This document shows positions 8,327 through 42,971 of a stretch of DNA of 64,000 bases, in pieces. A model generated the notes under the pieces. That model did no database searches. It saw nothing but the letters and a program-made list of their open reading frames with translations, and was not told where the DNA came from. The DNA comes from Candidatus Marinacidobacterales bacterium. GTDB taxonomy: Bacteria > Acidobacteriota > Vicinamibacteria > Marinacidobacterales > SMYC01. The DNA is taken from assembly GCA_965224085.1 (NCBI GenBank), contig CBDCYI010000004.1:1184001-1248000 (forward strand), written 5' to 3'. The translations under genes were made by a program, and so were the position numbers. Every line of letters begins with the position of its first letter. Positions within the stretch are counted from its first letter, which is position 1.

Positions 8327-8341
8327 CGTGCGGAGAGCCGA

Positions 8342-20862: not shown

Positions 20863-22885
20863 TCAGCGTCTCGCTGGTACGCGACGTTTGAGCTCTTCGT
20901 CGAAATTCTGAACGAGAACTAGCTCAGTGGGCGCGGGGTTGGAGAGGATCTTTTCGACGACTGCGAAACTCTGGCCGTCTGGTGATACGTCGAAAACTTG
21001 CCGGAGGCCGGGCTCTCCGAAAGATTTCTCGAAGACGAGCTTCGGCGCCCCGGGGTCGAGCTTCCCGTTTGTCGCGACTTCGACGGACATCAGCTCTTTC
21101 CCGCTAGAGTAGAAGAGCTCTCGCCCGTCGCGACTCCATCTCGGAGCCCAACCCCCGTTGGCGGAGATGCGCCACTTCTTTCCAGGTCCGGGATAGGGAC
21201 GCACGTAGATCTCGAAACGGCCCGTTTCGTCAGACTCATAAGCGATGTGTCGTCCATCGGGAGAGAATTCCGGGAACCACTCGTTGAACTCGGTCGACAA
21301 GAACGGCTGAACGACGTATTCGCCTTCATTTGAGATCAAGGCAAGGTCCCAGCCCCGATTCGGCTCGAGAATATGCAGCGCCCAGAGCTTCCCATCGGGG
21401 GACGGGCTGGCGAGACGGAACATCCGATCCATGTCACCGATCGCTTCGACCTCGCCCCCGCCATCGGCCGGCGTCCGATAGGGCTTCCAGACGCCCGAAC
21501 GAGTCGATACAAAGTGGAGGTGTCTCCCATCGTGGGTCCAGACAGGCAGCTGGTTGTCCCATACAAACGTAAAAGGGTTCATCGTGCCGCGGTCGAGGTC
21601 TCGGACCCACACCTGCGTGCTCAGACCACCGGCCGTGAACGCGAGTCGACGGCCATCCGGCGAGAAACGCGGGTCGCGAACGAAGTCGAGGGTCGAAGGG
21701 TACGGCGAGCAGCCCCCCTCCTCGCGCGTAGACGAGATGCCCCGATGGGCTGTAGCGCGCGAACCGGCCCCCTTCCAGGACCACCCGGTACTCGCCGGTC
21801 TCCAGTGAAAGGACGGCGATGGAAGCTTCGCCCCAGGATTCGGTGTCTGCCATCGCCATCGTGAGCAGAAGCGTCTTTCCGCCCGGTAGCATCTGGGGGA
21901 AGCGGTGGCTTTCCTCTAGCCGCTCACGTTTCGGGACGGTGAGAGGCTCCGCTGCCCCTTCTTCGAGCCAGACTTGCGAAAGCCCCCCAGCGAAGAGTCG
22001 AGTACCCAGTACAATCCTGCCATCCGGTCCCCAACTTCCCCCGCGGTGGGCACCCGCCAAATCAGCGATCGTGACCGGCGCCCCGCCGCTGACGGCAACC
22101 TTCTTCAACACGCGACCCGTGCCGATGGAAGTCACACTCGCGTAATAGGCCAGCCATTGACTGTCGTGAGAGAAGAACGGCTGGCGGGCACCCTCGCCAT
22201 CAATGGCGCGAGCCTCCAGCTGACCAGAGGCGCGTAAGTAGAGCTGGCTCGCGTCGCCGTCTCGAGCAACGTAGGCGATGTATCGACCGTCCGGCGAGAT
22301 CGCCATGCTCGTGTCGTCGCCATCGAGCGCAAGGCTGCTGCCGGGCACGAGTGGAATCACCGCGCGCGTGACGGCGCGCGCGGGCGGCGCATCGGATCTC
22401 CGGAGTGCCAGAAATATCGCGAGGAGGCTCAGTAGCACAGCCAGCGGGATCCACATGAAAGGTTTTCGTCCGACGTCACGGCCCGGCCAGCCCGCGCTCG
22501 ATGCGTGGGACGGAGTTGTCGTTGTTGTGTCGGCGCCTTGGGCACCGCTTTGGCCTTCCTCTGCGGCCGCCTGACGAGACGTCCGGTTGACGAACCGATA
22601 GCCCTTGCGAGCCAGCGTCTGGACGTAGCGCGGGCTCCCCGCATTATCCTCGAGCGCGATGCGAATCTGGCGGATGCACGAGTTGATGCCGAGATCGAAG
22701 TCGACATAGGTGTCGTCCTGCCAGAGCGCCCTCTGAATCTCTTCTCTGGTGATGACCTCGCCGGGACGACTGGCCAGCAGCGCAAGAACCTGCGCCGGCT
22801 GCGGCTTCAACTTGACGAGGTCCCCGCCCTTGCGGAACTCCCTCGTCTCCGCGTCCAGGGTGTAGTCGTCGAAACGGAGCATCAC
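20863..22885 (-). pseudogene. Winged-helix (CadC-like) + TM + PD40/TolB-like beta-propeller regulator, frameshifted near 21690
   Basis: ORF 21434-22885 gives wHTH, TM helix and SPDG repeats up to AVPFD; the homologous continuation (PRFSPDGRRLA...FSPDGRHIAYESDETGRFEIYV...LVLVQNFDEELKR) is in the frame of ORF 20863-21612. Confidence 0.75.
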
Positions 22886-24789: not shown

Positions 24790-25030
24790 ACAGCAATGGC
24801 ATCGCCCGGGCGGGCGAAGGTAATCGGAGACTGACCCTTTGAGATCTGTGGGAGGAAGTAGACTCCGATCGAGTGCAGCCGGGAGTCAAGGCCGAAGGTA
24901 CGATGGTGCTCAGTGCCCGTTTGACAGCAAGGTCTGGAGGGTTAGCGGGAGTATCCGTGGTGGCATGTCGCGAGGCATGACCCCGTTCGAAAGAATGTTT
25001 TGAATCGCCCCTCTCTCCTGGTTGCGCCGA
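24790..25030 (+). ncRNA. Candidate bridge RNA region in IS110 left end
   Basis: ~255-nt non-coding leader with hairpins (TCGCCC/GGGCGA; GACTCC/GGAGTC) upstream of a DEDD recombinase; boundaries unknown. Confidence 0.5.
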
Positions 25031-25042
25031 AAGGAGCGAGAA

Positions 25043-26431
25043 ATGGCACGTCGCGTCAGGACAAAAAGCAGTCGTCAAGCAAGACGGAAAAAATTGGAGC
25101 ACGAGCTCGACACGGTAAATCTAGATGCTGCAGGGATTGATATTGGAGCGGAGTCAATCGTGGCGGCAGTCCCGAAGGGGCGCACTCCTGAGGGCGAACA
25201 TGTCCGCACGTTTCAGAGCTTTGTATGCTCGCTGCGAGAGCTGGCCAATTGGCTGAAGGCGTGCGGCGTGTGCACGGTGGCGATGGAGTCGACCGGAGTT
25301 TATTGGATTTCACTGTACGAGTTGTTGGAAGACGAGGGATTTGAAGTCTATCTGGTCGATGCTCGCAAAGTGAAAAACGTATCTGGGCGCAAGTCAGACG
25401 TGTCGGATGCGGAGTGGCTGCAACAGCTGCATACATTCGGGCTACTCCCAAAAACCTTTCGGCCGGAATCGGCGATTTGCGAGCTAAGGGCATACACCCG
25501 CCAACGAAGCTCGCTGGTGGAGTCAGCGGCTCGCCACATTCAGCATATGCACAAAGCGCTCAACCAAATGGGGCTCCAGCTACAACACGTCCTGCGCGAC
25601 GTGACCGGAGTCACCGGCCTTGCGATCATCCGAGCGATCTTGAGAGGAGAGCGAGATCCTCGTGACCTAGCAAAACTGAGGCATGAACGTTGCCACAACG
25701 ATGAGGCCACGATCGCGAAAGCCTTAGAAGGTAACTATCGGAGCGAGCATGTTTTCGCTCTTCAACAGTCGGTGGAGTTGTACGATTTCTATCAAGAGAA
25801 AATGGAAGACTGTGACAAGCGGATCGAGAGATGCCTGTCCAAATTGGAGACCCGGCCTCAGGACGCTCGGCCTAAGCCGAAACCACGGACACGGCGAGCG
25901 CGTAGCGGCAACGGGCCGCGCTTTCCGCTCGCTGAGTCTCTATTGGGACTCACGGGGGTGGACCTAACCAGGGTTCCCGGCTTAGGTAGCTATGCCGTTC
26001 TGCAGCTCGTAGGAGAAACCGGTTGCGACATGAGCCCGTGGAAAAGTGACAAGCACTTCACCTCATGGCTAGCTCTCGCACCGAATAATAAGGAGTCCGC
26101 TGGTCGAATCTTTCGCCGGGCCACCCCAATGAGCTCCAGTCGTGCTGCAAAACTCTTTCGCCTCGCCGCGTGCGCTGTCCGCAATACCCAAACCGCGCTC
26201 GGCGCTTTCTATCGACGAATCCGATCGCGACGAGGTGCTCCAAAGGCCATCACAGCTACCGCCCGTAAAATAGCGACCATCTACTTCCGCATGCTTGCGA
26301 CTGGAGAGGAGTTCATTGAGCTCGGTCAGGACGCCTATGAAAGGCAATACCAGCAACGCCTCCTGAGTAATCTCCGACGCAAAGCTACCCGACTCGGCTT
26401 CAGCCTCGTTCCCGATCAATCCATATCATGA
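25043..26431 (+). CDS. IS110 family DEDD recombinase/transposase
   Basis: AGIDIG, AMESTGVYW, RKSDVSDAEWL, LAPNNKESAG, AITATARK; RBS AAGGAG at 25031. Confidence 0.95.
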   Translation: MARRVRTKSSRQARRKKLEHELDTVNLDAAGIDIGAESIVAAVPKGRTPEGEHVRTFQSFVCSLRELANWLKACGVCTVAMESTGVYWISLYELLEDEGFEVYLVDARKVKNVSGRKSDVSDAEWLQQLHTFGLLPKTFRPESAICELRAYTRQRSSLVESAARHIQHMHKALNQMGLQLQHVLRDVTGVTGLAIIRAILRGERDPRDLAKLRHERCHNDEATIAKALEGNYRSEHVFALQQSVELYDFYQEKMEDCDKRIERCLSKLETRPQDARPKPKPRTRRARSGNGPRFPLAESLLGLTGVDLTRVPGLGSYAVLQLVGETGCDMSPWKSDKHFTSWLALAPNNKESAGRIFRRATPMSSSRAAKLFRLAACAVRNTQTALGAFYRRIRSRRGAPKAITATARKIATIYFRMLATGEEFIELGQDAYERQYQQRLLSNLRRKATRLGFSLVPDQSIS

Positions 26432-26709
26432 AAAATGCCTTCGGCCGGGAGTGTCAGTCGAAAGTACCCAATGAACTCCTCTCCAGTCGCAAGCGTTGTG
26501 GCAACGTTCATGCCTCAGTTTTGCTAGGTCACGAGGATCTCGCTCTCCTCTCAAGATCGCTCGGATGATCGCAAGGCCGGTGACTCCGGTCACGTCGCGC
26601 AGGACGTGTTGTAGCTGGAGCCCCATTTGGTTGAGCGCTTTGTGCATATGCTGAATGTGGCGAGCCGCTGACTCCACCAGCGAGCTTCGTTGGCGGGTGT
26701 ATGCCCTTA

Positions 26710-28069
26710 GGGCCTGTTACATATTAATATTTACAATACACTGTCATTGCTGCTATCCTCTGCTGGTTGCGAGACTATACGAGGATGGCAACAGATCGAA
26801 AGGTACCAGAGTCTGAGCGTCACTGGTTGAGGGTGCTGGGGACGTTGAACGAAGCGCAAGCGCGTGTTTTTGTGGCTCAACGGGCGCTTGAAGAAGGACG
26901 CGGCGGGGTCAGTCGGCTGTCACGACTTACGGGGATGTCGCGGCCGACCATCATGAAGGGCGTGGCGGAACTCAAAGCGAAAGCGCCGATAGTTGATGAC
27001 GACAGCGCCCGAGTGCGCAAGCCTGGCGGGGGGAGAAAGCGGGTCGAGGAGTTAGACCCGAGAATCGAGCGGCAGCTGAAGAAGATCCTCGACGAAAGAA
27101 CCGCCGGCGACCCGATGAAGCATCTCAAATGGACGAACAAGTCCACGAGAGCGATGGCGGAGGAGCTTGAACGCAAAGGTCACGATGTCTCGCACGTGAC
27201 AGTTGCTCGACGCCTAGGAGAAATGGGTTACTCGCTGCAAGCTAACGTGAAGAGACTGGAAGGGGATCAGCACCCGGATCGGGACAAACAGTTTCGTTAC
27301 ATCAACAAGCAAGTAAGCAAGTTCATGCGAAGCAAGGATCCGGTCGTGAGCGTCGATACCAAGAAGAAGGAATTGATAGGAGCCTTTGAAAACAGGGGTA
27401 AAACGTGGAGGAAGAAGAAGGGCGGAGGTGAGCCGGTTCTTGTACACGACTTCCCCAGTATGGCTGAGGGCAAAGCAATTCCCTATGGGACTTACGATGT
27501 GTCCCGCGACGAAGCGCTGGTCAACGTCGGCATTACTCACGAGACTGCGGAATTCGAGGTAGAAAGCATCCGGAGATGGTGGCGCATACTCGGAAAAAAG
27601 TCTTATCCGATGGCGAAACGTCTGCTTGTTTGCGCGGACGCCGGTGGAAGCAACGGAAACCGGCTGCGAGGCTGGAAGCTCCACCTCCAAAAGCTATCGG
27701 ACCAACTGAAGATTCCCATCACCGTATGCCACTATCCACCGGGAACCAGTAAATGGAACAAAATCGAACATCGACTATTCTCCTTTGTCAGCATGAACTG
27801 GAAAGGACGGCCTCTCGTGAGCTACGAGGCGGTCGTCAATCTTATCGGCAACACCAAGACCCGAACCGGCTTGAAGGTAAAGGCCATGCTGGACAAGAAC
27901 TCCTACGAGACAGGCCAGAAGGTCAGTAACGAAGAAATGCAGGAGCTTCGACTCAAAATCCACCCCTTCCACGGCAACTGGAATTACACTCTCCATCCCC
28001 GACGTGCTTGATTGAGGGTATTAATTCTTACCGAACTCGTATTTGTAAATATTATTATGTAACAGAACC
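26710..28069 (+). mobile_element. ISAzo13-family IS, 1360 bp, with TIRs and 3-bp TSD
   Basis: 27-bp TIRs, 24/27 match (GGGCCTGTTACATATTAATATTTACAA / TTGTAAATATTATTATGTAACAGAACC); TTA duplicated at 26707-26709 and 28070-28072. Confidence 0.9.
26767..28011 (+). CDS. ISAzo13 family transposase
   Basis: GDPM..LKWT.KS, HPDRDKQF, SVDTKKKELIG, ADAGGSNG, HYPPGTSKWNKIEHRLFS, FHGNWNY. Confidence 0.95.
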   Translation: MRDYTRMATDRKVPESERHWLRVLGTLNEAQARVFVAQRALEEGRGGVSRLSRLTGMSRPTIMKGVAELKAKAPIVDDDSARVRKPGGGRKRVEELDPRIERQLKKILDERTAGDPMKHLKWTNKSTRAMAEELERKGHDVSHVTVARRLGEMGYSLQANVKRLEGDQHPDRDKQFRYINKQVSKFMRSKDPVVSVDTKKKELIGAFENRGKTWRKKKGGGEPVLVHDFPSMAEGKAIPYGTYDVSRDEALVNVGITHETAEFEVESIRRWWRILGKKSYPMAKRLLVCADAGGSNGNRLRGWKLHLQKLSDQLKIPITVCHYPPGTSKWNKIEHRLFSFVSMNWKGRPLVSYEAVVNLIGNTKTRTGLKVKAMLDKNSYETGQKVSNEEMQELRLKIHPFHGNWNYTLHPRRA

Positions 28070-28985
28070 TTAGCTCGCAAATCGCCGATTCCGGCCGAAA
28101 GGTTTTTGGGAGTAGCCCGAATGTATGCAGCTGTTGCAAGCCACTCCGCATCCGACACGTCTGACTTGCGCCCAGATACGTTTTTCACTTTGCGAGCATC
28201 GACCAGATAGACTTCAAATCCCTCGTCTTCCAACAACTCGTACAGTGGAATCCAATAAACTCCGGTCGACTCCATCGCCACCGTGCACACGCCGCACGCC
28301 TTCAGCCAATTGGCCAGCTCTCGCAGCGAGCATACAAAGCTCTGAAACGTGCGGACATGTTCGCCCTCAGGAGTGCGCCCCTTCGGGACTGCCGCCACGA
28401 TTGACTCCGCTCCAATATCAATCCCTGCAGCATCTAGATTTACCGTGTCGAGCTCGTGCTCCAATTTTTTCCGTCTTGCTTGACGACTGCTTTTTGTCCT
28501 GACGCGACGTGCCATTTCTCGCTCCTTTCGGCGCAACCAGGAGAGAGGGGCGATTCAAAACATTCTTTCGAACGGGGTCATGCCTCGCGACATGCCACCA
28601 CGGATACTCCCGCTAACCCTCCAGACCTTGCTGTCAAACGGGCACTGAGCACCATCGTACCTTCGGCCTTGACTCCCGGCTGCACTCGATCGGAGTCTAC
28701 TTCCTCCCACAGATCTCAAAGGGTCAGTCTCCGATTACCTTCGCCCGCCCGGGCGATGCCATTGCTGTCAAGTTGACGTTGCGAGCAAGCCGGCACCGCC
28801 GGATTGTCGTCTCTGCTCGAGTCAGGCGGCGCACGTGACGGCGTCCCAAGCGAGGAACGCGCGACCTCGTAGCTCTCGGTATTGTGATCCGGCGCGAGTC
28901 AGCGTTGTGCCGCTTCGCAATTGCACGCGCGCCGGATACAATCCTTACGTTAGACCGACACAACATCAAGAGAGAATATTGAGCG

Positions 28986-29196: not shown

Positions 29197-29544
29197 TTGG
29201 CCGAGGTTCTTTCTCAGGCCGACGCAGTTGTGCTCAGCGTTCCGCTCACACCGGATACTGAGCAGATGTTCAATGCGGAGATACTTGCGGCCATGAAACC
29301 AGATGTAATTCTCGTCAACATCGCCCGTGAGCAAGTGGTAGACGAAATCGCGCTGATCAAAGCCCTGAAGGACGACCGGATCGGATTTGTCGCACTTGAC
29401 GTTACGCAGACCGAACCGCTGCCTGCCGATAGTCCGCTTTGGGATCATCCCAATGTTCTCATAAGCCCGCACGGCGCAAGTACGGTTGCGGATGAAAACA
29501 GAACAGAACTGACATTTTTATACATAATTTGGAGTGCCTGCTAG
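29197..29544 (+). pseudogene. D-2-hydroxyacid dehydrogenase C-terminal fragment
   Basis: VPLTPDT, LVNIAR, ALDVTQTEPLPADSPLWDHPNVLISPH; N-terminal half absent. Confidence 0.75.
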
Positions 29545-31472: not shown

Positions 31473-32003
31473 GTGCTCGTCGTCGCCATACTGGTGCTTC
31501 TGGTCGCGCTGCTGTTGCTTGGCATGCCCCTGGTATTTGCCATGGGGACGACGGCGGTCATCTATCTCTACATCACCGATATCCATTTTTCCATGCTCGC
31601 CCAGCGCATGACATCGGCGGTCGATTCCTTCCTCATCCTGGCCATCCCGTTCTTCTACCTGGCCGGCGAGCTGATGAACGCCTGCAAGCTGACCGACCGT
31701 ATTGTGGCCATGGCCAAGGCCTTGGTCGGCCACATCCAGGGCGGCCTGGCCCAGGTCAACATCGTGGCCAGCATGATCTTCGCCGGCATGTCGGGTTCGG
31801 CCACCGCGGATACGGCGGCCTTGGGTTCGGTGCTTATCCCGGCGATGAAGAAGGAGGGTTACCACGCCGATTTCAGCGCCGCCGTCACCGTTGCCTCGGC
31901 GATGATCGGCCCAATCATCCCGCCCAGCGTCGCCATGGTGATCTTCGGCGCCGTCGCCGACGTCTCCATCGGCAGGCTACTGCTTGCCGGCATCCTGCCC
32001 GGC
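31473..32003 (+). pseudogene. TRAP transporter large permease (DctM), truncated
   Basis: LAIPFF.LAGELM, FAGMSGSATAD, GPIIPPS, SIGRLLLAGILPG, then homology stops at the intron remnant. Confidence 0.85.
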
Positions 32004-32171
32004 TTGCCGGCGGCTTTCGCCACGTGCCGGTGCCTCAGTCCTTGCCATGTCCCCCTTTCCAGCCCCCTCCACCTCGCACGCAACGTGCGGATTTCCCGCA
32101 AGACGCGCCCCTGCACACTTCGTATCAAGGGTTATGTGACCTAGCCGGTTGGCCACTGTCCGCGAGGGGCA
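32004..32171 (-). mobile_element. Group II intron 3' remnant (domain V and part of domain VI)
   Basis: Minus strand: GGTCACATAACCCTTGATACGAAGTGTGCAGGG-GCGCGTCTTGCGGGAAATCCGCACGTTGCGTGC-GAGGTGGAGGGGGCTGGAAA...CCGGCACGTGGCGAAAGCCGCCGG; DV-like hairpin at 32076-32108; no RT ORF. Confidence 0.7.
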
Positions 32172-32364: not shown

Positions 32365-33834
32365 TCAGCAGACAGGCAAGCGGATCGTAAAGACGCTTCC
32401 TTTGCCGGGCTTGCTCGACACGTCGATGGTGCCGTTGTGCTCCTCGATGATGCGATAGCTGATGGAAAGGCCCAGCCCGGTGCCGACCCCTACGCCTTTA
32501 GTGGTGAACCCGGGATCGAAAATCCGCTCCCGTTCTTCTTCGGAGATTCCACGCCCGGTATCGGCAAACTCCAGAACGACGCTATCACCGTCGCGTCGGG
32601 TGGTGATGGTGATCGTGCCCCGACCGTCCATTGCTTGAAAGGCGTTTACCAAGACGTTCATGAAGACCTGGTTGAGTCGATTGGGAAAACACTCCATGTC
32701 TTCGAGATCCCCGTAATTTTTGACGACCTCGACGCCGTCCTTTAATTTGTGCCGCAGAAGCGTCAGGGTGCTGTCGATCCCTTCATGCAGGTCGGCTTTC
32801 TTGCGCTGGGCTTCATCGAGACGCGCGAAGCTGCGCAAGGATTTCACGATCCCGACGAGGCGGTCCGAGGCCGTGTGCGTCGTAGAGGTCGCTTGTCTAA
32901 GGGCCTCGAGCGCCGGCTCGAGTTTCGGATACCGGGGAAATACGTCGGTGAGATCTTCACTCTCGAGCGCTTTCGTCACGATCGTCGTCGCACGCTTAGC
33001 GACGTCGGCATTGGCATGGATGGAGCCCAGCGGTGTATTGAATTCATGGGCGACCCCCGCGACCAGGTCGCCGAGCGCGGCCATTTTCGCCGATTGAACG
33101 AGCTGCGCCTGGGTTTCTCTGAGCTCGATGTTGGTCTTTTGAAGCTCTTCGGTGCGCTCGCGCACGCGTTGTTCGAGTGTCTCGTTGAGGAGCTTCAATC
33201 GCTCGTGCGCTTCCGCGAGCTCTTTGCGGCGCTCCTCCTTGGCCCGATAGAGCTGCGCATTGTGAATGGCGCTTGCGGCCTGGTTGGCGACGATCGTGAT
33301 CAGGATCTCGTCTCGTTCGCTGAAGACTCGGTGCTCCTCACTCTCGACCGAGAACACCCCGATGAGCTTGTCCTTGATCACGAGCGGAATGGCGATCTGG
33401 CTTTCGACGTTAGGAAGACCGGGTAGCTTCGTGGGTTCCCCGAGCTCGACCACCTGTCCTTGTTGCTCCATCTGGCTACGAACGGTGGAGTGGTAGGCGC
33501 GGCGCTGGCCCAGGTTGCCGAGCCGCATCATGCGGCGCTTTTTAGCGACGACACCGATGAGTCCGGTTCCCACCGGTACTTTGGCGCCAATGGCATCTTC
33601 TTCATACCCGTGGCTGGCTACGACGCTCAGAGTCTCTTCAGAATCGTCGAGTAGCAGGATAGAGTGGCTGAAGCCGAAGAGATCGTCCATGGTGCCGAGG
33701 ACGATGTCGAGGATCTCGTCGAGGTTCGGAGTGGAGTTGATGACGGTCAAGACTTGTTGAAGGATGCGGACTTCCGCGGTCTTTTGGGCGAGCTCGCCTT
33801 CGAGCTCGGCGCTCGCCGGACGTTCGGAGTTCAT
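32365..33834 (-). CDS. Cytoplasmic GAF-domain sensor histidine kinase
   Basis: GAF (IAIPLVIKDKLIGV...FSERDE...ANQAASAI), coiled coil, H-box AHEFNTPL, N-box QVFMNVLVNA, DTGRG, FTTK, GTGLGL; no TM helix. Confidence 0.9.
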   Translation of the reverse strand: MNSERPASAELEGELAQKTAEVRILQQVLTVINSTPNLDEILDIVLGTMDDLFGFSHSILLLDDSEETLSVVASHGYEEDAIGAKVPVGTGLIGVVAKKRRMMRLGNLGQRRAYHSTVRSQMEQQGQVVELGEPTKLPGLPNVESQIAIPLVIKDKLIGVFSVESEEHRVFSERDEILITIVANQAASAIHNAQLYRAKEERRKELAEAHERLKLLNETLEQRVRERTEELQKTNIELRETQAQLVQSAKMAALGDLVAGVAHEFNTPLGSIHANADVAKRATTIVTKALESEDLTDVFPRYPKLEPALEALRQATSTTHTASDRLVGIVKSLRSFARLDEAQRKKADLHEGIDSTLTLLRHKLKDGVEVVKNYGDLEDMECFPNRLNQVFMNVLVNAFQAMDGRGTITITTRRDGDSVVLEFADTGRGISEEERERIFDPGFTTKGVGVGTGLGLSISYRIIEEHNGTIDVSSKPGKGSVFTIRLPVC

Positions 33835-33839
33835 GGGCA

Positions 33840-34259
33840 CTACCCGGAAGGTTTGAGAGAAACTTTGCGGATCGATTGGACTTCGTAGACATCCGCCGCT
33901 TTGAGCTTGAAGATCCCGGACATTCCGCTCACCGAGGCGATGGCCTCGATCTGCATGTCCATCTCGTCGAAAATAGGGCCTTCCGTTTGCGAGTGATCGT
34001 AGCGAGCTTGAATAATCCAATGCGCGTATCCGTGATAGTCATTCAGGAGGACGCAAGCATTCGGATTCTCACGGACGTTTTTGACCGTCTTGTTGAAGAA
34101 TTGAAAGGATAGAGCCACATGCTCCGGGTCCACGTAATAGACCTGGGAGATGATGGTCGTATTCGGTGCACCATCTGCCGAGCACGATATGACCAGTGCG
34201 GGAACACCGTTCTCAAGGACCGGCTTGATCGCGTCTGGGAGCTCGACCCCTTCCATCAT
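33840..34259 (-). CDS. Pyridoxamine 5'-phosphate oxidase-like (split-barrel) protein
   Basis: ISCSADGAPN, SQVYYVD..HVALSFQFFNKTVKNVRENP; real start at MMEGV (34259). Confidence 0.8.
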   Translation of the reverse strand: MMEGVELPDAIKPVLENGVPALVISCSADGAPNTTIISQVYYVDPEHVALSFQFFNKTVKNVRENPNACVLLNDYHGYAHWIIQARYDHSQTEGPIFDEMDMQIEAIASVSGMSGIFKLKAADVYEVQSIRKVSLKPSG

Positions 34260-34729
34260 TCCTCCGCGGGTACGAGTCTGCGCCCGGCACCCGGGCCAGG
34301 AGTCTGGAGATAGATTTCCTGCACTTTGAAGCTTATGGCCACGCTCGGTTCGGCGGCGGACGCGCGGCAGCTGTCCTCCGAGAATCCAAACAGCTTGGTT
34401 CCACGGTCGACGAAGTTCGATCGGCACTGCTCGAAGGCGGCAACGTCCGATTCGCTGTACGACCGGGTTGAAACGAAATCTCCCTTGAACTGGTAGGTTT
34501 CGTGCGAGGGTACTTCGCAGACGGTTAGCGCAAAATGACCGTTGTCTTCGAGCGATGGGATCAGCTCCGGCGTGAAGTGCTCGGCAACGAGGCAGGTGAT
34601 GGTCTGCCGATCCGGTTCGACGAACCATCCCGAAAGCCGGTGCACGTGCGGGACGAGATTCTTGTCTCGCGTGCCACCGATGCCCACCGTCGCGGTTTTC
34701 AGGAACTCGATGATCGCGTCCGGGATCAC
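34256..34729 (-). CDS. Second PPOX-like split-barrel protein
   Basis: GTRDKNLVPH, LEDNGHFALT, HETYQFKG, IYLQTPGPGAG; stop overlaps next start (ATGA). Confidence 0.7.
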   Translation of the reverse strand: MIPDAIIEFLKTATVGIGGTRDKNLVPHVHRLSGWFVEPDRQTITCLVAEHFTPELIPSLEDNGHFALTVCEVPSHETYQFKGDFVSTRSYSESDVAAFEQCRSNFVDRGTKLFGFSEDSCRASAAEPSVAISFKVQEIYLQTPGPGAGRRLVPAEE

Positions 34730-34983
34730 GGAAACCCCCTACGTAGCTCTGTGCTTCTCCAAGCGACGAGCAATTCTTTGTCAGCCCGTAGCCGAAGCGA
34801 GTTCCGATTCTAATCGAGGAGACCGCGTTGGGGCAAGCAGTCGCGGCACGAGCTCAGGTGCTTCCGCAATCAAGTGTTGGCGGTGAGCCCTGACCCCTCT
34901 GCGTGGTAGAGTTTGAGCCTGATTTCGAGAGACGCAGTTCTTTTGTCGACAAGGCCCCCGCGAGGTGAAGAAGCTGAGTTGTC

Positions 34984-36069
34984 TCAACGCAGAAGTGCCT
35001 GCTCCGGGGACATATAAGCGAGAGTGCCCATGATTTGACCGACGCTGGTCTCGCGCCGTGCCCGCGTTTGGGCTTCAGCGGCCTTCTCAGGCAAAGGCTC
35101 CACGAGTTTTGCTAGGCCGAAGTCAATGATCTTGGGGTGGCCGTCATCGGTGACCATGATGTTCGCGGGTTTAATGTCACGATGCACGATGCCTTTCGAG
35201 TGAGCCTTGGTGAGTCCCTCGGCGACCTCAGTCACGATGTGGACCGCACGCTCGGGAGTCCGTTCTATCTCGAGGACGCCTGCCTTGAACGCTTTGGAGT
35301 AGAAGGTGTTGACGAGATGGCGCGTGTAGAACCGCGGCTGTTCGAGCGCCCGCTGAATACTCCCCTGGGAACGATGATCACCCTCGACTTGCACCAGCTC
35401 CCGGAGCGTCGCGGCAAGCTCAGGCTGACGGAAGATGTCGCCAGGCTCGGGCAGGTGACCGTCCCGCAGGTAGATTTTCGCCGTGGAAGGAAACTGCTTG
35501 GTGCCCTCAATCCGAGCACTTCCTCGAGGCTCATGGTTCCGAAGCGATCCAGCGCCAACACGAGCGTGTCGAAAACGGCGGGCATGGTGGCCGTCAAGAT
35601 TCCGGTCGGTTCGTGTCATGGTGGCCGTCAAGATTCCGGTCGGTTCCCCACCTCGCTGTTTGTAGAAATCAATACTCGCCGACTTGGGTGCGAAACCGAC
35701 CCCGCTGATGGCGTAAACCTTGCGTTCGTCCGCCACATACACCAGGACAGGCACCTCGCCACCGAATCCGAACACATCGAGCTCGGTCACCGCCTCGGCA
35801 AATACCGTCGCCACACCTGCGTCAATGGCGTTGCCTCCCTGTATGAGAATCCTCTGCCCGGCTTGGGCGGATAGGTATTTGCGGCCCCCGAGAGCTCCTC
35901 GCAGACCGCGAACCACTGGCTTATATGTCTTCGCGTAGTAGGCCTTGGTGAAAGCCTCCATTTGTTCTGGAGAACCGTCTCCTTGGGGCTTACGGGTCTG
36001 CGCTGCCAAAGCGGCTGCCAGTGTCCCCGAAAGCACAAGGGATGTTCGGACTAGCGTACCTCTTCTCAT
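34984..36069 (-). pseudogene. Chimeric ORF: gamma-glutamyltransferase pieces fused in frame to a Ser/Thr kinase fragment
   Basis: [16 protein letters not shown] and [10 protein letters not shown] (GGT) followed by [24 protein letters not shown] (kinase subdomains VI-VIII only). Confidence 0.75.
35583..35646. repeat. 30-bp direct repeat separated by 4 bp
   Basis: CATGGTGGCCGTCAAGATTCCGGTCGGTTC at 35583-35612 and 35617-35646. Confidence 0.9.
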
Positions 36070-36518: not shown

Positions 36519-39500
36519 CTAAGGCGGCACGTCGGTCGGCGGCAAGTTTATGGTACGCCCCGGGGTCCAGGGGACACCCGCCGCATCGAGCTCTTGCTCC
36601 AGCGCCGGCAGGTCCAGCCGGACCAGGCGCTCCACTGCCGCGATCTGCTCGGTGAGCTTCTCCTGGCTGTGCCGGGTCAGCCGCTTTTGGTCGGCCGTCG
36701 GCAACGCGGTCGAGGACTCGACGTTGGCGTACAGCAATCGGACCTGTTCGGCGAGAGCTGGCGCGCCCCTCTGCTCGGCCCGGCTGCGGGTGTTCTCCTC
36801 CCCGTTGATTGCCCGTCGGACCTCCGTCAGGGCGTCGTCGATCTCCGTGAGCTGGGAATCGATGGCACCGGGAACGTCGGCCTGCGTTTGGAGCGCCCGG
36901 CGCATCCCACCAAGTCGCTCCTCGACCTCCGCGGTCGTCAACAGAATCGCGTGCACGACGCCTATCAACTGGTTGAGCGTCTGTAGCGTGTCGTGCCACG
37001 TACGGCGGTCCGCGGTGCTGATGTCGATCCACGGGTCGCCGGAAACCGCGACACTCCGGACCTGCTCCGTCTCTCCCGCCCTGAGCCGGACCTGATAGGT
37101 GCCCGGCAACACGAACGGACCCGCCAATATGCCACGGAACAACGGCGCGGAGTCTCCCTCACCGGGCTTGAACGTCAACGGGTGTCGCAAGTCCCACACC
37201 AGCCGCTGGACGCCAGCTCCGTCTGGACCCTGTGGGGCTTCCAGCCGTCGCAAAAGCTGCCCGCCTTCGTGCAGGATGTCGACCGCCACCTTCGGAGCGG
37301 ACGACGTCGACTCCATCAGCGCCGGGTTGACGTAGTAGGTGAGGATCGCTCCATCCGGGGGGTTCGGTGCCGTGTAGTGGCTGTGACCCAGACTGCGCCG
37401 GCCCCGGTTGAACTTGTGCATCTGGATGGCCGGACGCACCGACGCCAGATGAAGGTCCGATGCCAGCACCTCCTCGGAAAGCTCCTCCAGGATGGCAACG
37501 TCGTCGAGAATCCAGAAGCCCCTGCCATGGGTTCCAATCACCAGGTCGTTTTTCTGTGGCTGGATCACCATGTCATGCACCGGCACCGTCGGCATGTTGT
37601 TCTTGAGCGACACCCACTGGCCACCGCCGGTGATCGAAACGAAGACCTGAGACTCCGTGCCGACGAACAGCAGGTTGGGATTGCGCGGATGCTCGACGAT
37701 CACCCGCGTCGAGCCGAACTCGGGAAGGTCGCCGGTGATGTCGCTCCAGATGGCTCCGTAGTCCGTGCTCTTGTACACGTAGGGCAGGAAGTTCGCGTCC
37801 TTGTGGCCGTCGAATGTGGCGTAGAGCGTCCCCTCCTGGTGCTGTGACCAGGACACCCGGCTCCCGCGGGTCTTCTCCGGTATGGTCGTGGGAGTCTCCG
37901 CCCGGACCCAATCGTCGCCGTCGTTCCGGCTCACGTGAATCAGCCCATCGTCGCTCCCCACCGCCAGCAAGCCCCGGCGGATCGGCGACTCCGAAAAGGT
38001 CGTGATGTTTCCGTAGTCCGAGGTGCTCCGGTGCAGGTCGAGGGCGTCCCGGGGCTGGATCTTGCCCTGCATCGGCATGTCGAAGTAGCTGATCTGGCGT
38101 GTCAAGTCGGGGCTAATCACTTGCCAGCTGTCGCCGCGGTCCGCGCTCTTGAACACCACGTTGGCGGAGAAGTAGAGCGTCTCGTTGTCGTAGTGGGAGA
38201 TGTGTAGCGGCGACGACCAGTTCCACAGGTACATCGGCGCGTCCTCGGGATGGGCCGGCTGGATCAAGCGCCGCTCACCGGTCTCGGTGTCGAAGCGCAC
38301 CAGCCGACCGTACTGGGACTCGCTGTAGACGATGGTGGGATCCTCGGGGTCGATGCGGGCGTGAAAGCCGTCGCCGCCGACCGTGACGAACCAATCCTCG
38401 TTGGCAATGCCGTCGGTGAAGCGCGTAGCGCTCGGTCCTCCCAGCGTGTTGTTGTCCTGGGTGCCACCGTAGACGTAGTAGAAGGGCTCCCGCTGGTCGA
38501 CCGCCACCGTGTAGAACTGCATCACCGGCAGGTTCGTCACGAAGTTCCACTTCTTGGCACGATCGAAGGTGAAGTAGACGCCGCCGTCGTTACCGATCAC
38601 GATGTGGTCGGAGTTTGTCGGGTCGATCCACATCGCCCGCTGGTCGACGTGGACTTGCGCTCCCGCGAAGTCGTAGGTAAACGTCCGGCCGCCGTCCTCG
38701 GAGACATTGTTGCCGTTGCGCAACAGGTAGACGCGCTCCGGGTTGTTGGGGTCGCATCGCAGCTTGTAAGCTATCTCGCCGCTCCGCCGCTCCCAGCTCG
38801 CGCCCCGATCATCGGAGCGGTAAAGACCTTCCTCGTCCCCCTTTGCGCGGATGGCCGCGTAGATCGTGTCGGGCTGGCTGCGACAGACGGAGAGCGCGAT
38901 GCTGCCGACGTCGCCCGCGGGCAGGCCGTTTTGAAGCTCCTGCCAGGTGGCGCCGCCGTCCGTCGTCCGGTAAATGCCGCCCTCGGGGCCGCCTCCGAGG
39001 AAGCTCCAGTTGCGCCGCTCCCGCTGGAAAGCCGCCGCATAGAGCAACGCCGGATCCCGAGGATCCATCTCCACGTCGGAAACGCCCGTGTACTGGCTGA
39101 CGAAGAGTACCTTCTCCCAGGTCTCGCCGCCGTCGGTGGTTTTGAACACCCCGCGTTCCTCGTTCGCGCCCCACAAGGCTCCCATCCCCGCAACGTAAAC
39201 GATGTCGGGGTCCTCCGGATGGATCACGATCTTTCCGGTGTGCCGCGTCTCCTCGAGCCCCATGTGCTTCCAGCTCTTGCCACCGTCTTCCGACTTGTAG
39301 ACCCCGTCGCCCCAGGAGGCGCTGCGGGCATTCCAGTTTTCTCCCGACCCGAGCCACACGAGGTTGGGGTTGTCCGGTGCGACGGCAATCGCGCCGAGAG
39401 ACGCCGTCCCCCGATTCTTGAAAATCTCTTCCCAGGTGATACCCCGGTTGGTGGACTTCCAGGCCCCACCGGTCGAGGTGGCGACGTAGACGATGTCGGG

Positions 39501-39701
39501 GTTGCTCTCGACCGCGGTGAGGTCACCGATGCGGCCGCTCTTGGCAGCCGGCCCGATGGTGCGCCACTCGAGCTTGGCTAGGGTCGAGCTCAGCGCTCGG
39601 CGGCCGTCGCGCTCTTGCCCGAACGATACCGAAGGGGATACCAGCGCGGCGGTCAACAACACCGACGCCAGGTTCAATAGCGTTACCGTACGGCTCCGCA
39701 T
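36519..39701 (-). CDS. Secreted BNR/Asp-box (VPS10/sortilin-like) beta-propeller protein, putative glycosyl hydrolase
   Basis: Many S/T-x-D-G-G-x-T/S-W repeats; WRTIGP..SGRI, GGTQDN, GGDGF, GTHGRGFWILDD; helical tail. Confidence 0.85.
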   Translation of the reverse strand: MRSRTVTLLNLASVLLTAALVSPSVSFGQERDGRRALSSTLAKLEWRTIGPAAKSGRIGDLTAVESNPDIVYVATSTGGAWKSTNRGITWEEIFKNRGTASLGAIAVAPDNPNLVWLGSGENWNARSASWGDGVYKSEDGGKSWKHMGLEETRHTGKIVIHPEDPDIVYVAGMGALWGANEERGVFKTTDGGETWEKVLFVSQYTGVSDVEMDPRDPALLYAAAFQRERRNWSFLGGGPEGGIYRTTDGGATWQELQNGLPAGDVGSIALSVCRSQPDTIYAAIRAKGDEEGLYRSDDRGASWERRSGEIAYKLRCDPNNPERVYLLRNGNNVSEDGGRTFTYDFAGAQVHVDQRAMWIDPTNSDHIVIGNDGGVYFTFDRAKKWNFVTNLPVMQFYTVAVDQREPFYYVYGGTQDNNTLGGPSATRFTDGIANEDWFVTVGGDGFHARIDPEDPTIVYSESQYGRLVRFDTETGERRLIQPAHPEDAPMYLWNWSSPLHISHYDNETLYFSANVVFKSADRGDSWQVISPDLTRQISYFDMPMQGKIQPRDALDLHRSTSDYGNITTFSESPIRRGLLAVGSDDGLIHVSRNDGDDWVRAETPTTIPEKTRGSRVSWSQHQEGTLYATFDGHKDANFLPYVYKSTDYGAIWSDITGDLPEFGSTRVIVEHPRNPNLLFVGTESQVFVSITGGGQWVSLKNNMPTVPVHDMVIQPQKNDLVIGTHGRGFWILDDVAILEELSEEVLASDLHLASVRPAIQMHKFNRGRRSLGHSHYTAPNPPDGAILTYYVNPALMESTSSAPKVAVDILHEGGQLLRRLEAPQGPDGAGVQRLVWDLRHPLTFKPGEGDSAPLFRGILAGPFVLPGTYQVRLRAGETEQVRSVAVSGDPWIDISTADRRTWHDTLQTLNQLIGVVHAILLTTAEVEERLGGMRRALQTQADVPGAIDSQLTEIDDALTEVRRAINGEENTRSRAEQRGAPALAEQVRLLYANVESSTALPTADQKRLTRHSQEKLTEQIAAVERLVRLDLPALEQELDAAGVPWTPGRTINLPPTDVPP

Positions 39702-39722: not shown

Positions 39723-42700
39723 CTACCTGCCGGATGGACGCGAAGACGTCGACGGCAGGCGGATAGGACGCCCTGGCGTCCATCGGACGCCGGCCCCGTC
39801 GAGCTGTTGCTCGAGTGCCGGCAGCTTGTTGCTCACCAGACGATCGACAGAGGCGATTTGCTCGCCGAGCTCCTCGTGGCTGCGCCGGGTCAGCTGGCGC
39901 TGCTCGACGGTGGGGAGCGACGTGGCCGCCTCGACGGCGAAATAGAGCTGACTCACCCGTCTCGCCAGCGGTGGCGCTCCGGGAAGGGTGGCGCCGCCCG
40001 TCTCCTCGCCCTCCAGCGTTCGGAGCATCGTTTCGACGTCGTTCGCGATCTCATCGATGGCATCGTGAATCGAGCCGGAGACGTCTCCATGGGCCGCGAT
40101 TGCCTCACGGATCCCTTTGAGCTTCTCCTCAACCTCGCGGGTCGAGCGCACCAGCGCCCTCGAGGTCGCCATCATCTGGTTGAGCGCCTGAGCGGTGTCG
40201 TGCCACACGCGGCGATCCTCGACACTGATCGTGATGGCGGGATCCCCCGCGACCTCGATGCGTCTCGCCTGTTCGGCATCACCGACCCGGAGCCGTACCT
40301 GGTACGTTCCCAGCAGCACGAAGGGCCCTCTCGGCTGGCCGCGGAAAAACGGAACCGAATCGTCTTCGTCGGGCTCGTACGACAACGGATGCCTCAGATC
40401 CCATACCAGCCGCTTCATGCCGGTGCCCTTCGCACCTTGCGGCGGATCCAGCCGGCGAACGAGCCCACCGTCACCATCCAGGATGTCGAGTTCGATCCGC
40501 GGAGCTCCACCCTCGGAGCCGTTGTCGGTGGACTCCGTTGCCACCTCCATCATCGATGGGTTCACGTAGTAGGCGAGGATCGCCCCTTCGGGAGGGTTCG
40601 GGGCGACGTAGCGCGTGTGGCCCATGCTTCTGCGGCGGCTGAACTTGTGCAACTGGGTCGCGGGCTGAAGGGATGCGAGGTGGAAGTCCGACGCCAGAAC
40701 GTCCTCGGAAAGCTCTTCGAGCAGGGTGATATCTTCGAGGATGAAGAACCCCCTTCCGTGAGTGGCGATCACGAGGTCGTTCTTCTTCGGCTGGATCACC
40801 ATATCGTGCACCGGTACCGTTGGGAGGCCTTCCTTCAAACGTACCCAGTTCTCGCCTCCGTTGATCGTCACGAAGGCCGCGAACTCCGTGCCCACGAACA
40901 GCAGGTTCGCGTTGCGGGGGTGCTCGATGATCACCCGCACCGGGCCGAACTCCGGTAAATCTCCCGTGATGTTGCTCCAAGTCGCCCCGTAGTCGGTGCT
41001 CTTGTACGCATACGGTAAGAAATTGTTGTCCTTGTGGCCCTCGAAGGTAGAATAGAGCGTTCCCTCGGCGTGGTTCGACCACACGACCCGGCTCACGAAC
41101 GTCATCTCCGGGACCGTCTCCGGGATCTCCGCCGCCACCCAGTTGCCACCGTCGTCGCGGGTGATGTGGATCAATCCGTCGTCGGTCCCTACCGCCAGGA
41201 GCCCCTGTTTCAGGCGCGACTCCGAGAACATGGTGATGTTGCCGTAGTCCGAGGTGGCCCGGTGCAGCATGAACGCGTCCCGCGGCTGCACTTTGCCCTG
41301 CAGCGGCAAATCGAAGTGACTCGTCTGCCGGGTCAAGTCGGGGCTGATCACGTTCCAGCTGTCACCACGGTCGGGACTCTTGAACACCACGTTGGCGGAG
41401 AAGTAGATCGATTTGTTGTCGTAGTGCGAGATATGCACCGGCGACGACCAGTTCCAACGATACTTGCTGCCGTCGTCCGGCTGCGCCGGCTGGATGAGCT
41501 TCCCCTCACCCGTCACCGTATCGAAGCGGAGCAGACGCCCGTACTGGGATTCGGTATAGACGATGGTGGGATCCTCTGGGTCGATCTGCACGTAGAAGCC
41601 GTCGCCGCCGGAGGTCCGGTACCAGTCCGCGTTGGTAATGCCGTCGGTGTAGCGCGTACCGCTCGGGCCGCCCATCGAGCCGTTGTCCTGCGTTCCCCCG
41701 TAGACGTAGTAGAAGGGTTCCTGGAGGTCGACGGCGACCGTGTAGAACGTGCTCACCGGCAGGTTCTCGGCGAACTCCCACGTTTCGCCGCCGTTGTCGG
41801 TGATGTAGAAGCCGCCATCGTTGCCGATGAGGATGTGCTTCGAATCGGCGGGATCGATCCACATAGCTTGCTGGTCGCTGTGGACGGTTCTGTCCTTGTA
41901 GGGCCGGGTGAGGGTCCTGCCACCGTCCTCCGACACGCCGTCCTCGTCGGTGACCAGGTAGACGCGCTCCGCATTGCTGGGATCACAGCGGACTTTGCTG
42001 GACGAGGCCTCGTTGACGCGCTCCCAGCTCGCGCCCCGGTCGTCCGATCGGTAGAGCCCCTGCTCGTCCTCTCCCGCCGTGATGCTCGCATAGACGCGGT
42101 CGGGCATGCTGCGGCACACCGAAAGGCCGATCTTCCCCAGATCTCCCTTTGGCAGGCCGTTGGTCAGCCGCACCCAGCGCTCGCCCCCGTCGGTGCTTCG
42201 GTAGATCCCACTCTCCGGACCCCCGCCCAGAAAGCTCCATACCCGCCGCTCCCGTTGAAACGCGGCCGCATACAGCCAGTCCGGATTCCGAGGATCCATT
42301 GCCAGATCCACGACTCCGGTGTGCGGGCTCACGTAGAGCACCTTCTCCCAGCTGGCACCCCCATCCGTGGTCTTGAAGACACCGCGCTCCTCGTTTGCTC
42401 CCCACAACGCGCCACCGCCCGCCACGTACACGGTGTCCGGGTCCTCAGGATGAATGAGGATCTGACCGACGTGTCGGGTCTCTTCCAGTCCCATGTGCTT
42501 CCACGTCTTGCCACCGTCTTCCGACTTGTACACGCCGTCGCCCCACGAAACGCTTCGCCAGTTCCACGTTTCCCCCGAACCCAACCACAGCAGGTTCGGG
42601 TTCGAGGGTGCGATCGCCACCGAGCCCAGGGATGCCGTGCCGCGGTTCTCGAAGATCGGCTTCCAGGTAGAACCGCGATCCATGGATTTCCACAGCCCGC

Positions 42701-42971
42701 CGGTGGACGTCGCCACGTAGATGATGTCGGGATCGCTCTCCACCGCCTCGATGTCGGCGATCCGCCCGCTGATGTGGGCGGGACCGATGTTGCGCCACTC
42801 GAAACTGGTCAGGTGAGACGGTTTCAGCGCTCCGCCGTCACCCGAGCCGCTCTGTGCAGGCTCGGCCGGAACTCCGTAAGCCGAAGGCACCGCTGCTGGC
42901 GCTAGGACGGCGGCCGCGCAGCACAGAATCAGGACGATGCGTACGATGGTCCTCTGTCGTTCGATGCTCAT
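39723..42971 (-). CDS. Paralogous secreted BNR/VPS10-like protein
   Basis: Same architecture and shared peptides, e.g. WGDGVYKSEDGGK.WKHMGLEETRH. Confidence 0.85.
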   Translation of the reverse strand: MSIERQRTIVRIVLILCCAAAVLAPAAVPSAYGVPAEPAQSGSGDGGALKPSHLTSFEWRNIGPAHISGRIADIEAVESDPDIIYVATSTGGLWKSMDRGSTWKPIFENRGTASLGSVAIAPSNPNLLWLGSGETWNWRSVSWGDGVYKSEDGGKTWKHMGLEETRHVGQILIHPEDPDTVYVAGGGALWGANEERGVFKTTDGGASWEKVLYVSPHTGVVDLAMDPRNPDWLYAAAFQRERRVWSFLGGGPESGIYRSTDGGERWVRLTNGLPKGDLGKIGLSVCRSMPDRVYASITAGEDEQGLYRSDDRGASWERVNEASSSKVRCDPSNAERVYLVTDEDGVSEDGGRTLTRPYKDRTVHSDQQAMWIDPADSKHILIGNDGGFYITDNGGETWEFAENLPVSTFYTVAVDLQEPFYYVYGGTQDNGSMGGPSGTRYTDGITNADWYRTSGGDGFYVQIDPEDPTIVYTESQYGRLLRFDTVTGEGKLIQPAQPDDGSKYRWNWSSPVHISHYDNKSIYFSANVVFKSPDRGDSWNVISPDLTRQTSHFDLPLQGKVQPRDAFMLHRATSDYGNITMFSESRLKQGLLAVGTDDGLIHITRDDGGNWVAAEIPETVPEMTFVSRVVWSNHAEGTLYSTFEGHKDNNFLPYAYKSTDYGATWSNITGDLPEFGPVRVIIEHPRNANLLFVGTEFAAFVTINGGENWVRLKEGLPTVPVHDMVIQPKKNDLVIATHGRGFFILEDITLLEELSEDVLASDFHLASLQPATQLHKFSRRRSMGHTRYVAPNPPEGAILAYYVNPSMMEVATESTDNGSEGGAPRIELDILDGDGGLVRRLDPPQGAKGTGMKRLVWDLRHPLSYEPDEDDSVPFFRGQPRGPFVLLGTYQVRLRVGDAEQARRIEVAGDPAITISVEDRRVWHDTAQALNQMMATSRALVRSTREVEEKLKGIREAIAAHGDVSGSIHDAIDEIANDVETMLRTLEGEETGGATLPGAPPLARRVSQLYFAVEAATSLPTVEQRQLTRRSHEELGEQIASVDRLVSNKLPALEQQLDGAGVRWTPGRPIRLPSTSSRPSGR

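Follow-up and report, generated by a model that had tools for sequence, protein, structure and literature searches.

A conserved gene trio encoding two split-barrel proteins and a GAF histidine kinase: a proposed tripartite cytoplasmic sensor module

We analysed a 64,000-nucleotide (64-kb) stretch of the genome of a Candidatus Marinacidobacterales bacterium (contig CBDCYI010000004.1, positions 1184001-1248000; hereafter the window), in which three adjacent genes encode two different PPOX-like proteins, PPOX-A and PPOX-B, and a soluble GAF histidine kinase. The original prediction for this locus, made from the DNA letters, had described two PPOX-like genes joined by an ATGA overlap and followed after 5 nucleotides (nt) by the kinase gene, and both the coordinates (Table 1) and the Pfam matches agreed with that description. 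The overlap suggests that PPOX-A and PPOX-B are translationally coupled. A sigma-70-like promoter match lies about 78 nt upstream of PPOX-A, with 2 such sites found against 1.0 expected in shuffled sequence. Kyte-Doolittle values over 19-residue windows stayed at or below 1.39 in each of the three proteins, so all are predicted to be soluble. The kinase scored above threshold against Pfam GAF_2 (64.3 bits, residues 37-191), GAF_3 (46.1 bits) and GAF (44.1 bits), matched HisKA at 33.7 bits and HATPase_c at 95.9 bits, and has the H, N, G1, F and G2 boxes of a sensor histidine kinase (HEFNTP at residue 263, NAFQA at 397, DTGRG at 425, FDPGFT at 439 and GTGLGL at 451). Its best NCBIfam matches, T2SS_HK, AtoS and ZraS, all fell under their cut-offs. 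No receiver domain was found within the window. The genome contains 51 receiver-domain matches, the nearest on the contig being at 973999 and 1460008, about 210 kb off on either side, which bears out the earlier remark that no response regulator is adjacent; the receiver gene that would stand next to the kinase in a classical two-component operon is missing here. The best reading is that of an orphan NtrB/AtoS-like kinase whose partner regulator is encoded elsewhere. We propose that the trio represents one undescribed and widespread tripartite cytoplasmic sensor module, an interpretation that we consider rather probable.

Table 1. Coordinates of the trio, its domains and signals, and the nearby insertion sequence (IS) elements within the window (aa, amino acids).
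Feature	Position	Strand	Details
PPOX-A	34729..34256	minus	157 aa, GTG start, stop TGA 34258-34256
PPOX-B	34259..33840	minus	139 aa, ATG start, stop TAG 33842-33840; PNPOx_N split-barrel protein
Histidine kinase	33834..32365	minus	489 aa, ATG start at 33834; N-terminal helix, GAF, HisKA, HATPase_c
ATGA overlap, PPOX-A stop / PPOX-B start	34259-34256	minus	read from sequence
5-nt gap, PPOX-B to kinase	33839-33835	minus	
Shine-Dalgarno-like AGGGGG	34740-34735	minus	5 nt upstream of PPOX-A GTG
Sigma-70-like promoter match	34807..34836	minus	TTGCCC-18 nt-TAGAAT, 9/12; weak evidence
GAF domain	33259..33726	minus	kinase residues 37-192
HisKA dimerisation/phospho-acceptor domain	32812..33075	minus	kinase residues 254-341, H-box HEFNTP at residue 263
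HATPase_c catalytic domain	32371..32682	minus	kinase residues 385-488; N, G1, F, G2 boxes
IS110-family transposase	25022-26431		
ISAzo13-type DDE transposase	26767-28011		
IS110 fragment	28021-28536		opposite strand

The three-gene arrangement is more than a chance neighbourhood, and recurs in every related locus that was examined. With PPOX-B as the query against 40 related genomes and the window's own (41 in total), the gene was found in 9 genomes at 10 places. At all nine loci outside the window (tblastn, 8 related genomes) PPOX-A, PPOX-B and GAF followed one another in the same order; the count is 8/8 if one locus from an unpublished genome (L007, genome G027) is set aside. A scan with one genome per species returned at least 593 matches to the pattern, at least 575 of which encode a PPOX-B relative. 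The 80 best-scoring loci, which come from named genomes and are the closest relatives of the query, were searched with custom hidden Markov models for PPOX-A, PPOX-B and GAF. All 80 had PPOX-B with a downstream GAF and 79 had PPOX-A upstream, the missing PPOX-A (L064) being explained by a contig that begins 96 nt before PPOX-B. The neighbourhood survey by which the original prediction was to be judged thus found synteny conserved among near and distant carriers. Named records place the module in Acidobacteriota, Latescibacterota, Krumholzibacteriota, Actinomycetota, Nitrospirota, Methylomirabilota/Rokubacteria, Binatota, Myxococcota, Verrucomicrobiota, SAR324, and Alpha- and Betaproteobacteria, among them many SAR116 single-cell genomes.

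The close coupling of the two PPOX genes is likewise general. At 79 loci (L013-L091) the PPOX-A stop and PPOX-B start either overlapped (4 nt, 19 cases; 1 nt, 8 cases; 8 nt, one case) or were separated by 0-20 nt (41 cases) or 21-60 nt (7 cases), so that 69 of the 79 overlap or lie at most 20 nt apart; the rest include two loci with a split or absent PPOX-A and one true fusion. In the converse search, the GAF region of the kinase was compared with the same 41 genomes. The 10 hits with E of 1.4e-23 or lower were exactly the 10 PPOX-B loci, the next hit being at 2e-13, and in this sample the GAF subfamily therefore occurs only together with the PPOX pair. No fourth conserved gene emerged around the trio from all-against-all clustering of flanking open reading frames (ORFs), in which shadow ORFs arising in high-GC DNA and families with several domains drowned out most else.

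Natural fusions join the same components covalently. The original prediction had held that the second PPOX type is found elsewhere in fusion with a GAF domain of similar kind and different output domains, and the protein database contains such fusions in number. We sorted by length and position the 120 best homologues longer than PPOX-B (383 were significant among 491 candidates). PPOX-B was N-terminal in 96 of these 120; 88 of the 96 were 400-499 aa long, and precomputed Pfam assignments gave PNPOx_N plus GAF for nearly all of the 88. The 96 also included one PPOX-B-GAF-sigma54 activator with HTH_8 (P0004) and one PPOX-B-GAF-AAA+-Ser/Thr kinase (P0022). In the other 24, PPOX-B was C-terminal or internal, mostly in proteins of about 300-340 aa built as PPOX-A-linker-PPOX-B. 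An example is P0005, which is 50% identical to the window's PPOX-A and 65% identical to its PPOX-B. A metagenomic protein of 660 aa (P0389) spans PPOX-A (14-161), PPOX-B (from about 212), GAF (363-519) and some 140 further residues, and could be a true triple fusion or an artefact of gene calling or frameshift. Detachable is the original prediction's term for the sensor; the data show that separate and fused forms replace one another over evolution, and do not show the complex dissociating.

What follows the GAF domain differs between lineages, which upholds the expectation of swappable outputs. Among the 80 best loci, the output was a class III nucleotide cyclase in 36 and a cyclase with HD domain in 12 (48 cyclases in total), a sigma54-type AAA+ domain with Ser/Thr kinase in 18, a histidine kinase in 8, a fused C-terminal domain lacking a Pfam match in 4, PP2C/SpoIIE in one and truncated in one. 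These types were checked with Pfam on 23 of the 80 loci, and the proportions are biased, since this set is made up of the loci nearest to the query. Proteins of the GAF/sigma54-type AAA+/Ser-Thr kinase kind always had the PPOX-A/PPOX-B pair upstream (18 loci; L015, L018-L036; Vicinamibacterales and Krumholzibacteriia). In a fused family of 445-470 aa from Nitrospira, Ottowia and Comamonas, the last 110 or so residues form a conserved domain (approximately 352-461 in the 461-aa P0056; 2488-2820 in L010) for which neither Pfam nor the sequences of solved structures gave a match. Judged by eye from its motif and the predicted order of strands and helices, this domain might resemble an OmpR-type winged helix.

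In a quick IQ-TREE phylogeny of the concatenated PPOX-A, PPOX-B and GAF alignment (83 rows), the output labels changed 6 times, compared with a mean of 33.8 in shuffled labels, and none of 200 shuffles gave a number as low. Outputs are therefore rarely exchanged and define deep clades. The histidine kinase and AAA+/Ser-Thr kinase types fall into one clade (support 99), within which they are interleaved. The tree is discordant with taxonomy, an Acidimicrobiia locus lying beside Acidobacteria and a Verrucomicrobiia locus among Rokubacteria, and lateral transfer of the whole module is therefore indicated. One genome (G008) carries two modules of different clades: a split PPOX-A/PPOX-B/GAF-kinase form (L008), and PPOX-A with a fused PPOX-B-GAF-C-terminal-domain protein of 451 aa (L010), the PPOX-B sequences being only 45% identical. 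We also observed a kinase-type module in Bryobacterales (L037) lying between two IS481-family transposase genes (993-2195 and 7608-8399), a position that fits mobility of the module.

By sequence, the two PPOX proteins differ widely in how readily they can be classified. PPOX-B matched Pfam PNPOx_N (PF01243) at 40.7 bits against a cut-off of 28.1, over profile positions 1-119 of 120. For the family of PPOX-A, Pfam has no model: nearly all of the protein's 368 homologues of similar length are named 'hypothetical' and lack a Pfam assignment, the precomputed Pfam field being empty for 117 of the 120 listed. Searching 1.84 billion sequences with a PPOX-A profile gave 2349, 1737 and 289 representatives at E of at most 1e-3, 1e-10 and 1e-30, respectively. 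Between the PPOX-A profile and PPOX-B, hhalign returned a probability of 1.9%, that is no detectable sequence relation. The fold was read from an AlphaFold 2 model of the natural fusion P0005, which had a predicted local distance difference test score (pLDDT) of 89.3 and a predicted template modelling score (pTM) of 0.88, with disorder confined to the linker. Its PPOX-B half aligned with 3in6 (the flavin mononucleotide (FMN)-binding protein Swol_0183, Z 15.4), HupZ (Z 15.0, over 119-121 residues) and, at Z 13.9, an FMN-binding protein of D. vulgaris; its PPOX-A half aligned with the PNPOx-like 2i02 (Z 11.3). Because both halves of the model align to split-barrel structures, PPOX-A and PPOX-B are both predicted to be split beta-barrels. 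The heterodimer that had been predicted gains support indirectly, through the natural PPOX-A-PPOX-B fusions and this confident two-barrel model. Compared with solved structures by sequence, the combined PPOX-A-PPOX-B profile returned HupZ alone, at E 0.18, and profile A1 returned GAF matches only.

PNPOx-fold proteins are mostly enzymes, and F420 and FMN reductases are among the solved structures near the P0005 model. The pair might on these grounds be an ordinary oxidoreductase, serving regulated detoxification or cofactor salvage, which shares an operon with the kinase and has no physical coupling to it. We regard this explanation as highly improbable in view of the 1:1 co-occurrence of the GAF subfamily with the pair, the gene order that stays invariant upstream of six unrelated output types, the existence of covalent fusions, and the loss from PPOX-A of a phosphate-binding motif that PPOX-B has kept.

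That motif is part of the evidence for a cofactor site in a heterodimer. Over 86 sequences, H76, K82, G83 and a C-terminal QTPGP..G motif (142-149) were invariant in PPOX-A; in PPOX-B the invariant residues were C26, G30, P32, N33, S38, D44, H47, S51, Q53, F54, F55, K57, T58 and N61. The polar ones among them, C26, H47, K57 and T58 of PPOX-B with H76 and K82 of PPOX-A, would fit a cofactor pocket. According to the secondary structure of the P0005 model, K57-T58 start helix 2 of PPOX-B, and PPOX-A has no conserved residue at the equivalent position. The start of this helix, with the K-T..N motif of PPOX-B, is what we take to be the flavin-phosphate site of the split-barrel superfamily. This asymmetry in the model leads us to propose a heterodimer whose single functional site is asymmetric.

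As to what the site may hold, PNPOx_N membership and the K-T..N motif of PPOX-B favour flavin, and the conserved K57-T58..N61 make a putative FMN or flavin adenine dinucleotide (FAD) site at the dimer interface. Heme is a serious alternative, since the structures resemble HupZ, HutZ and HugZ and the invariant positions include Cys and His residues. By our estimate flavin has about an even chance, heme a distinctly smaller one, and another ligand, or none, a somewhat smaller one again. F420, which had been named with FMN and heme as a possible cofactor, is unlikely in the source organism and was rejected: the profile of the F420-dependent PPOX class (TIGR03618) gave 18.1 bits, far from its cut-off of 79.05, and no CofD (TIGR01819) match above cut-off was found in the source genome (G000, 95% complete; best 21.4 bits). 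CofD was above its cut-off in one of 5 module-bearing genomes (G043).

The GAF domain has conserved features of its own. Y114, P138-G-L140 and S145-Q146 are invariant and lie in an insertion specific to this subfamily, and E164 is invariant as well. The nearest solved GAF domains are those of PtsP (3ci6, E 7.8e-19), which does not have the insertion, and NifA (9qq6). We regard the insertion as a candidate docking surface. A complex prediction of PPOX-A, PPOX-B and GAF (1-215) with GAF as the partner chain, gave 0.73, 0.73 and 0.74 in three runs, 0.00 and 0.00 in controls with the partner replaced, and 0.66 in a control with chain A replaced, values that we weigh neither in favour of binding nor against it. 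Docking of the PPOX pair on GAF, as the original prediction had it, may be supposed from the natural fusions. The kinase has cysteines only at 382 and 489, the GAF region has none, and no conserved GAF column is Cys. A bilin photoreceptor, in which a split-barrel heme oxygenase or biliverdin reductase feeds the GAF domain, was considered and rejected on these grounds: the chromophore-binding Cys that phytochrome and cyanobacteriochrome GAF domains have within or before the domain was absent, and the GAF is of PtsP/NifA type.

These properties also bear on the main rival to a tripartite sensor, in which sensing proper falls to the GAF domain and the PPOX pair has an auxiliary part, as an enzyme or chaperone by which the GAF ligand or cofactor is made, destroyed or loaded. 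The pair might, for instance, resemble the heme chaperones or oxygenases HupZ and HugZ and supply a heme-binding GAF of DosS type. Such a role would suit the heme binders found among the nearest solved structures (HupZ, HutZ, HugZ and Pden_1323), and it would also suit a weak alignment (E 0.063) in which the PPOX-A tail QTPGPGAG stands opposite QSGANAGK of HupZ, with Q-S/T-x-G-x-x-A-G-K/R in common. The GAF domain's own invariants, and its closeness to the GAF domains of PtsP and NifA, which bind small molecules, also speak for this rival. However, permanent PPOX-B-GAF and PPOX-A-PPOX-B-GAF fusions are more readily explained by a lasting complex than by an enzyme and its product, there is no Cys in the GAF region, and the neighbourhood has no conserved gene for a heme or bilin pathway. 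We judge this rival unlikely; mere co-transcription, discussed above, and decay of the locus, discussed below, are much less likely than it.

Under the tripartite sensor that we prefer, PPOX-A and PPOX-B would form a heterodimeric split barrel with, probably, a single composite cofactor site. PPOX-B would supply the K57-T58..N61 helix start for binding of a phosphate or propionate, and PPOX-A, which lacks that motif, would add H76, K82 and the QTPGPGAG tail. The pair would probably hold flavin, or alternatively heme, and would stay on its dedicated GAF domain, through which a change in the barrel driven by redox, gas or ligand would be relayed to whichever output follows. In the source genome this output would be autophosphorylation of the orphan NtrB/AtoS-like kinase, with the regulator encoded elsewhere. 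Going further, PPOX-A/PPOX-B may constitute a new class of input domain and the first PNPOx-fold sensor, with one flavin or heme in an asymmetric Cys/His site, conveying redox state, a diatomic gas or light through GAF, in a module that has moved between phyla. This wider proposal is tentative, and we give it slightly less than an even chance. In SAR116, other Alphaproteobacteria and Rokubacteria/Methylomirabilota the module would then drive cAMP/cGMP synthesis; in Vicinamibacterales it would drive Ser/Thr phosphorylation, in Nitrospira and Comamonadaceae transcription, and in the source genome a His-Asp phosphorelay. In the full-text literature (subscription-only papers and supplements were outside the scope) we found no description of a signalling module that combines a PNPOx or split-barrel protein with GAF, in agreement with the earlier statement that no characterisation of such a system was known. 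Cofactor-based sensing with exchangeable outputs is itself known; what would be new is the fold and the subunit arrangement, which are not known to have been linked to signalling.

Several observations weigh against this interpretation. On the structural side, PPOX-A reached only 15 bits (E 0.032) with PNPOx_N, below the cut-off, and had no significant match to solved structures by sequence, the best being HupZ at E 0.063 with the PPOX-A profile. With PPOX-B, alone or as a profile, ferritin noise came out on top and the best split-barrel structure was 3in6 at E 0.32. The proposed placement of the invariant residues in a shared pocket draws on secondary structure and general knowledge of the family, which also enters into the cofactor assignment, and the model of a natural PPOX-B-GAF fusion was of moderate quality (pLDDT 79.9, pTM 0.70) and carried no inter-domain measure. 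With regard to distribution, PPOX-B was not found in four genomes of the same genus, and phylum-wide it was present (E of at most 1e-20) in 26 of 301 sampled genomes. The copy in the closest relative (L002, 1217-2385, genome G010), whose PPOX-B is 96% identical, has a frameshifted PPOX-A and a kinase that ends after about 88 residues. The module is thus dispensable. A locus in a Candidatus Marinacidobacterales bacterium (L012, 3479-4800) has decayed in the same way, with a PPOX-A frameshift and the GAF kinase cut at about 88 residues.

The broken copy in the closest relative raises the question of whether the trio in the source genome is itself a non-functional, decaying remnant in a region rich in IS elements and pseudogenes. 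The genes that flank it are fragmentary. The DctM ORF (31473-32144; TRAP), which follows an intact DctQ, covers only profile positions 1-181 of 413. An ORF at 34984-36069 is an in-frame chimera of gamma-glutamyltranspeptidase (positions 2-74 of 512) and protein kinase (positions 96-167 of 263), and what remains of a 2-hydroxyacid dehydrogenase, in the ORF at 29197-29544, is its C-terminal part. Transposases of IS110 and ISAzo13 type are found at distances of 4-9 kb, and the lack of a response regulator within some 210 kb could be taken in the same sense. The trio itself, however, is intact amid this debris, as had been noted from the sequence: its frames are whole, and every family-invariant residue and all kinase motifs are retained. 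Its genes are under purifying selection, with ratios of nonsynonymous to synonymous substitution rates (dN/dS) against the orthologues of genome G013 of 0.151 for PPOX-A, 0.187 for PPOX-B and 0.121 for the kinase. The kinase-type modules elsewhere are orphans too; of 112 candidate flanking ORFs at 7 such loci, 35 of the larger ones were scanned; none of the 35 contained a receiver domain, and they were unrelated from locus to locus. We therefore hold a decaying remnant to be the most improbable of the explanations considered.

In its working, the proposed module resembles known systems of whose families it is not a member. Stand-alone H-NOX and NosP heme sensors are small soluble cofactor proteins encoded in an operon with a soluble kinase or diguanylate cyclase, which they are presumed to control through direct contact. 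As with the trio, the output that accompanies a given sensor varies from species to species, whereas the trio has a predicted split-barrel heterodimer of two distinct proteins and an obligatory, dedicated GAF adaptor. In the NifL-NifA system, a flavin-type sensor acts on a regulator with an N-terminal GAF of the same subtype, and the PPOX-B-GAF-sigma54 activator form offers a counterpart to that regulator. NifL differs in that it is a PAS-FAD protein rather than a split barrel and that it inhibits its partner, acting on the AAA+ domain; between NifL and PPOX-A or PPOX-B no homology was seen. Soluble cytoplasmic kinases that sense redox, gas or light through a cofactor are also represented by DosS/DosT with GAF-heme, and by LOV and PAS-heme kinases. 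There the cofactor sits inside the kinase's own GAF or PAS domain, in contrast to the trio, which always has two extra proteins and a GAF of PtsP/NifA type.

In its descent, the module belongs to the GAF histidine kinases and to the split-barrel superfamily, in which PPOX-B is placed by its profile match and PPOX-A solely by its fold. With HupZ, HugZ and HutZ it has the fold in common and, for PPOX-A, a faint resemblance in sequence and C-terminal motif, but these proteins are homodimers tied to the use of iron or heme rather than GAF signalling proteins, and their sequence similarity to the trio is non-significant. The family of heme-binding split barrels does have non-enzymatic heme-sensor members, such as plant GBP (PMC11602992); the main text of that paper does not contain 'GAF', 'histidine kinase' or 'heterodimer'. 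The FMN-binding split-barrel proteins of D. vulgaris and Swol_0183 (3in6) are structurally closest to PPOX-B, which scores above the PNPOx_N threshold and retains the K-T..N motif where helix 2 begins, the place of flavin-phosphate binding in this family. They differ in being homodimeric carriers or enzymes that have no signalling partner, and PPOX-A has lost the motif.

Cytoplasmic cofactor sensors such as PAS, LOV, BLUF, H-NOX, globin and GAF-heme proteins are the main handles on how bacteria perceive oxygen, redox state, nitric oxide and light, and several have been turned into tools for optogenetics or biosensing. If our proposal is true, the module would add to them a new fold, with two dissimilar subunits and a GAF adaptor that is always required. 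It is carried, among others, by the abundant marine SAR116 and by Acidobacteriota, Rokubacteria and Nitrospira of soils, in which it would mostly control nucleotide cyclases. A function would also be proposed for the sizeable PPOX-A family.

Elsewhere in the window, the segment at 25022-28536 that holds the IS elements of Table 1 has a guanine-cytosine content of 0.55-0.57, compared with about 0.62 in the remainder. A 483-aa ORF on the minus strand at 21434-22885 combines an N-terminal OmpR-type Trans_reg_C DNA-binding domain with PD40/WD40-like beta-propeller repeats. On the other side of the trio, two tandem minus-strand ORFs occupy 36519-39701 (1060 aa, with Sortilin-Vps10/BNR repeats) and 39723-42971 (1082 aa).

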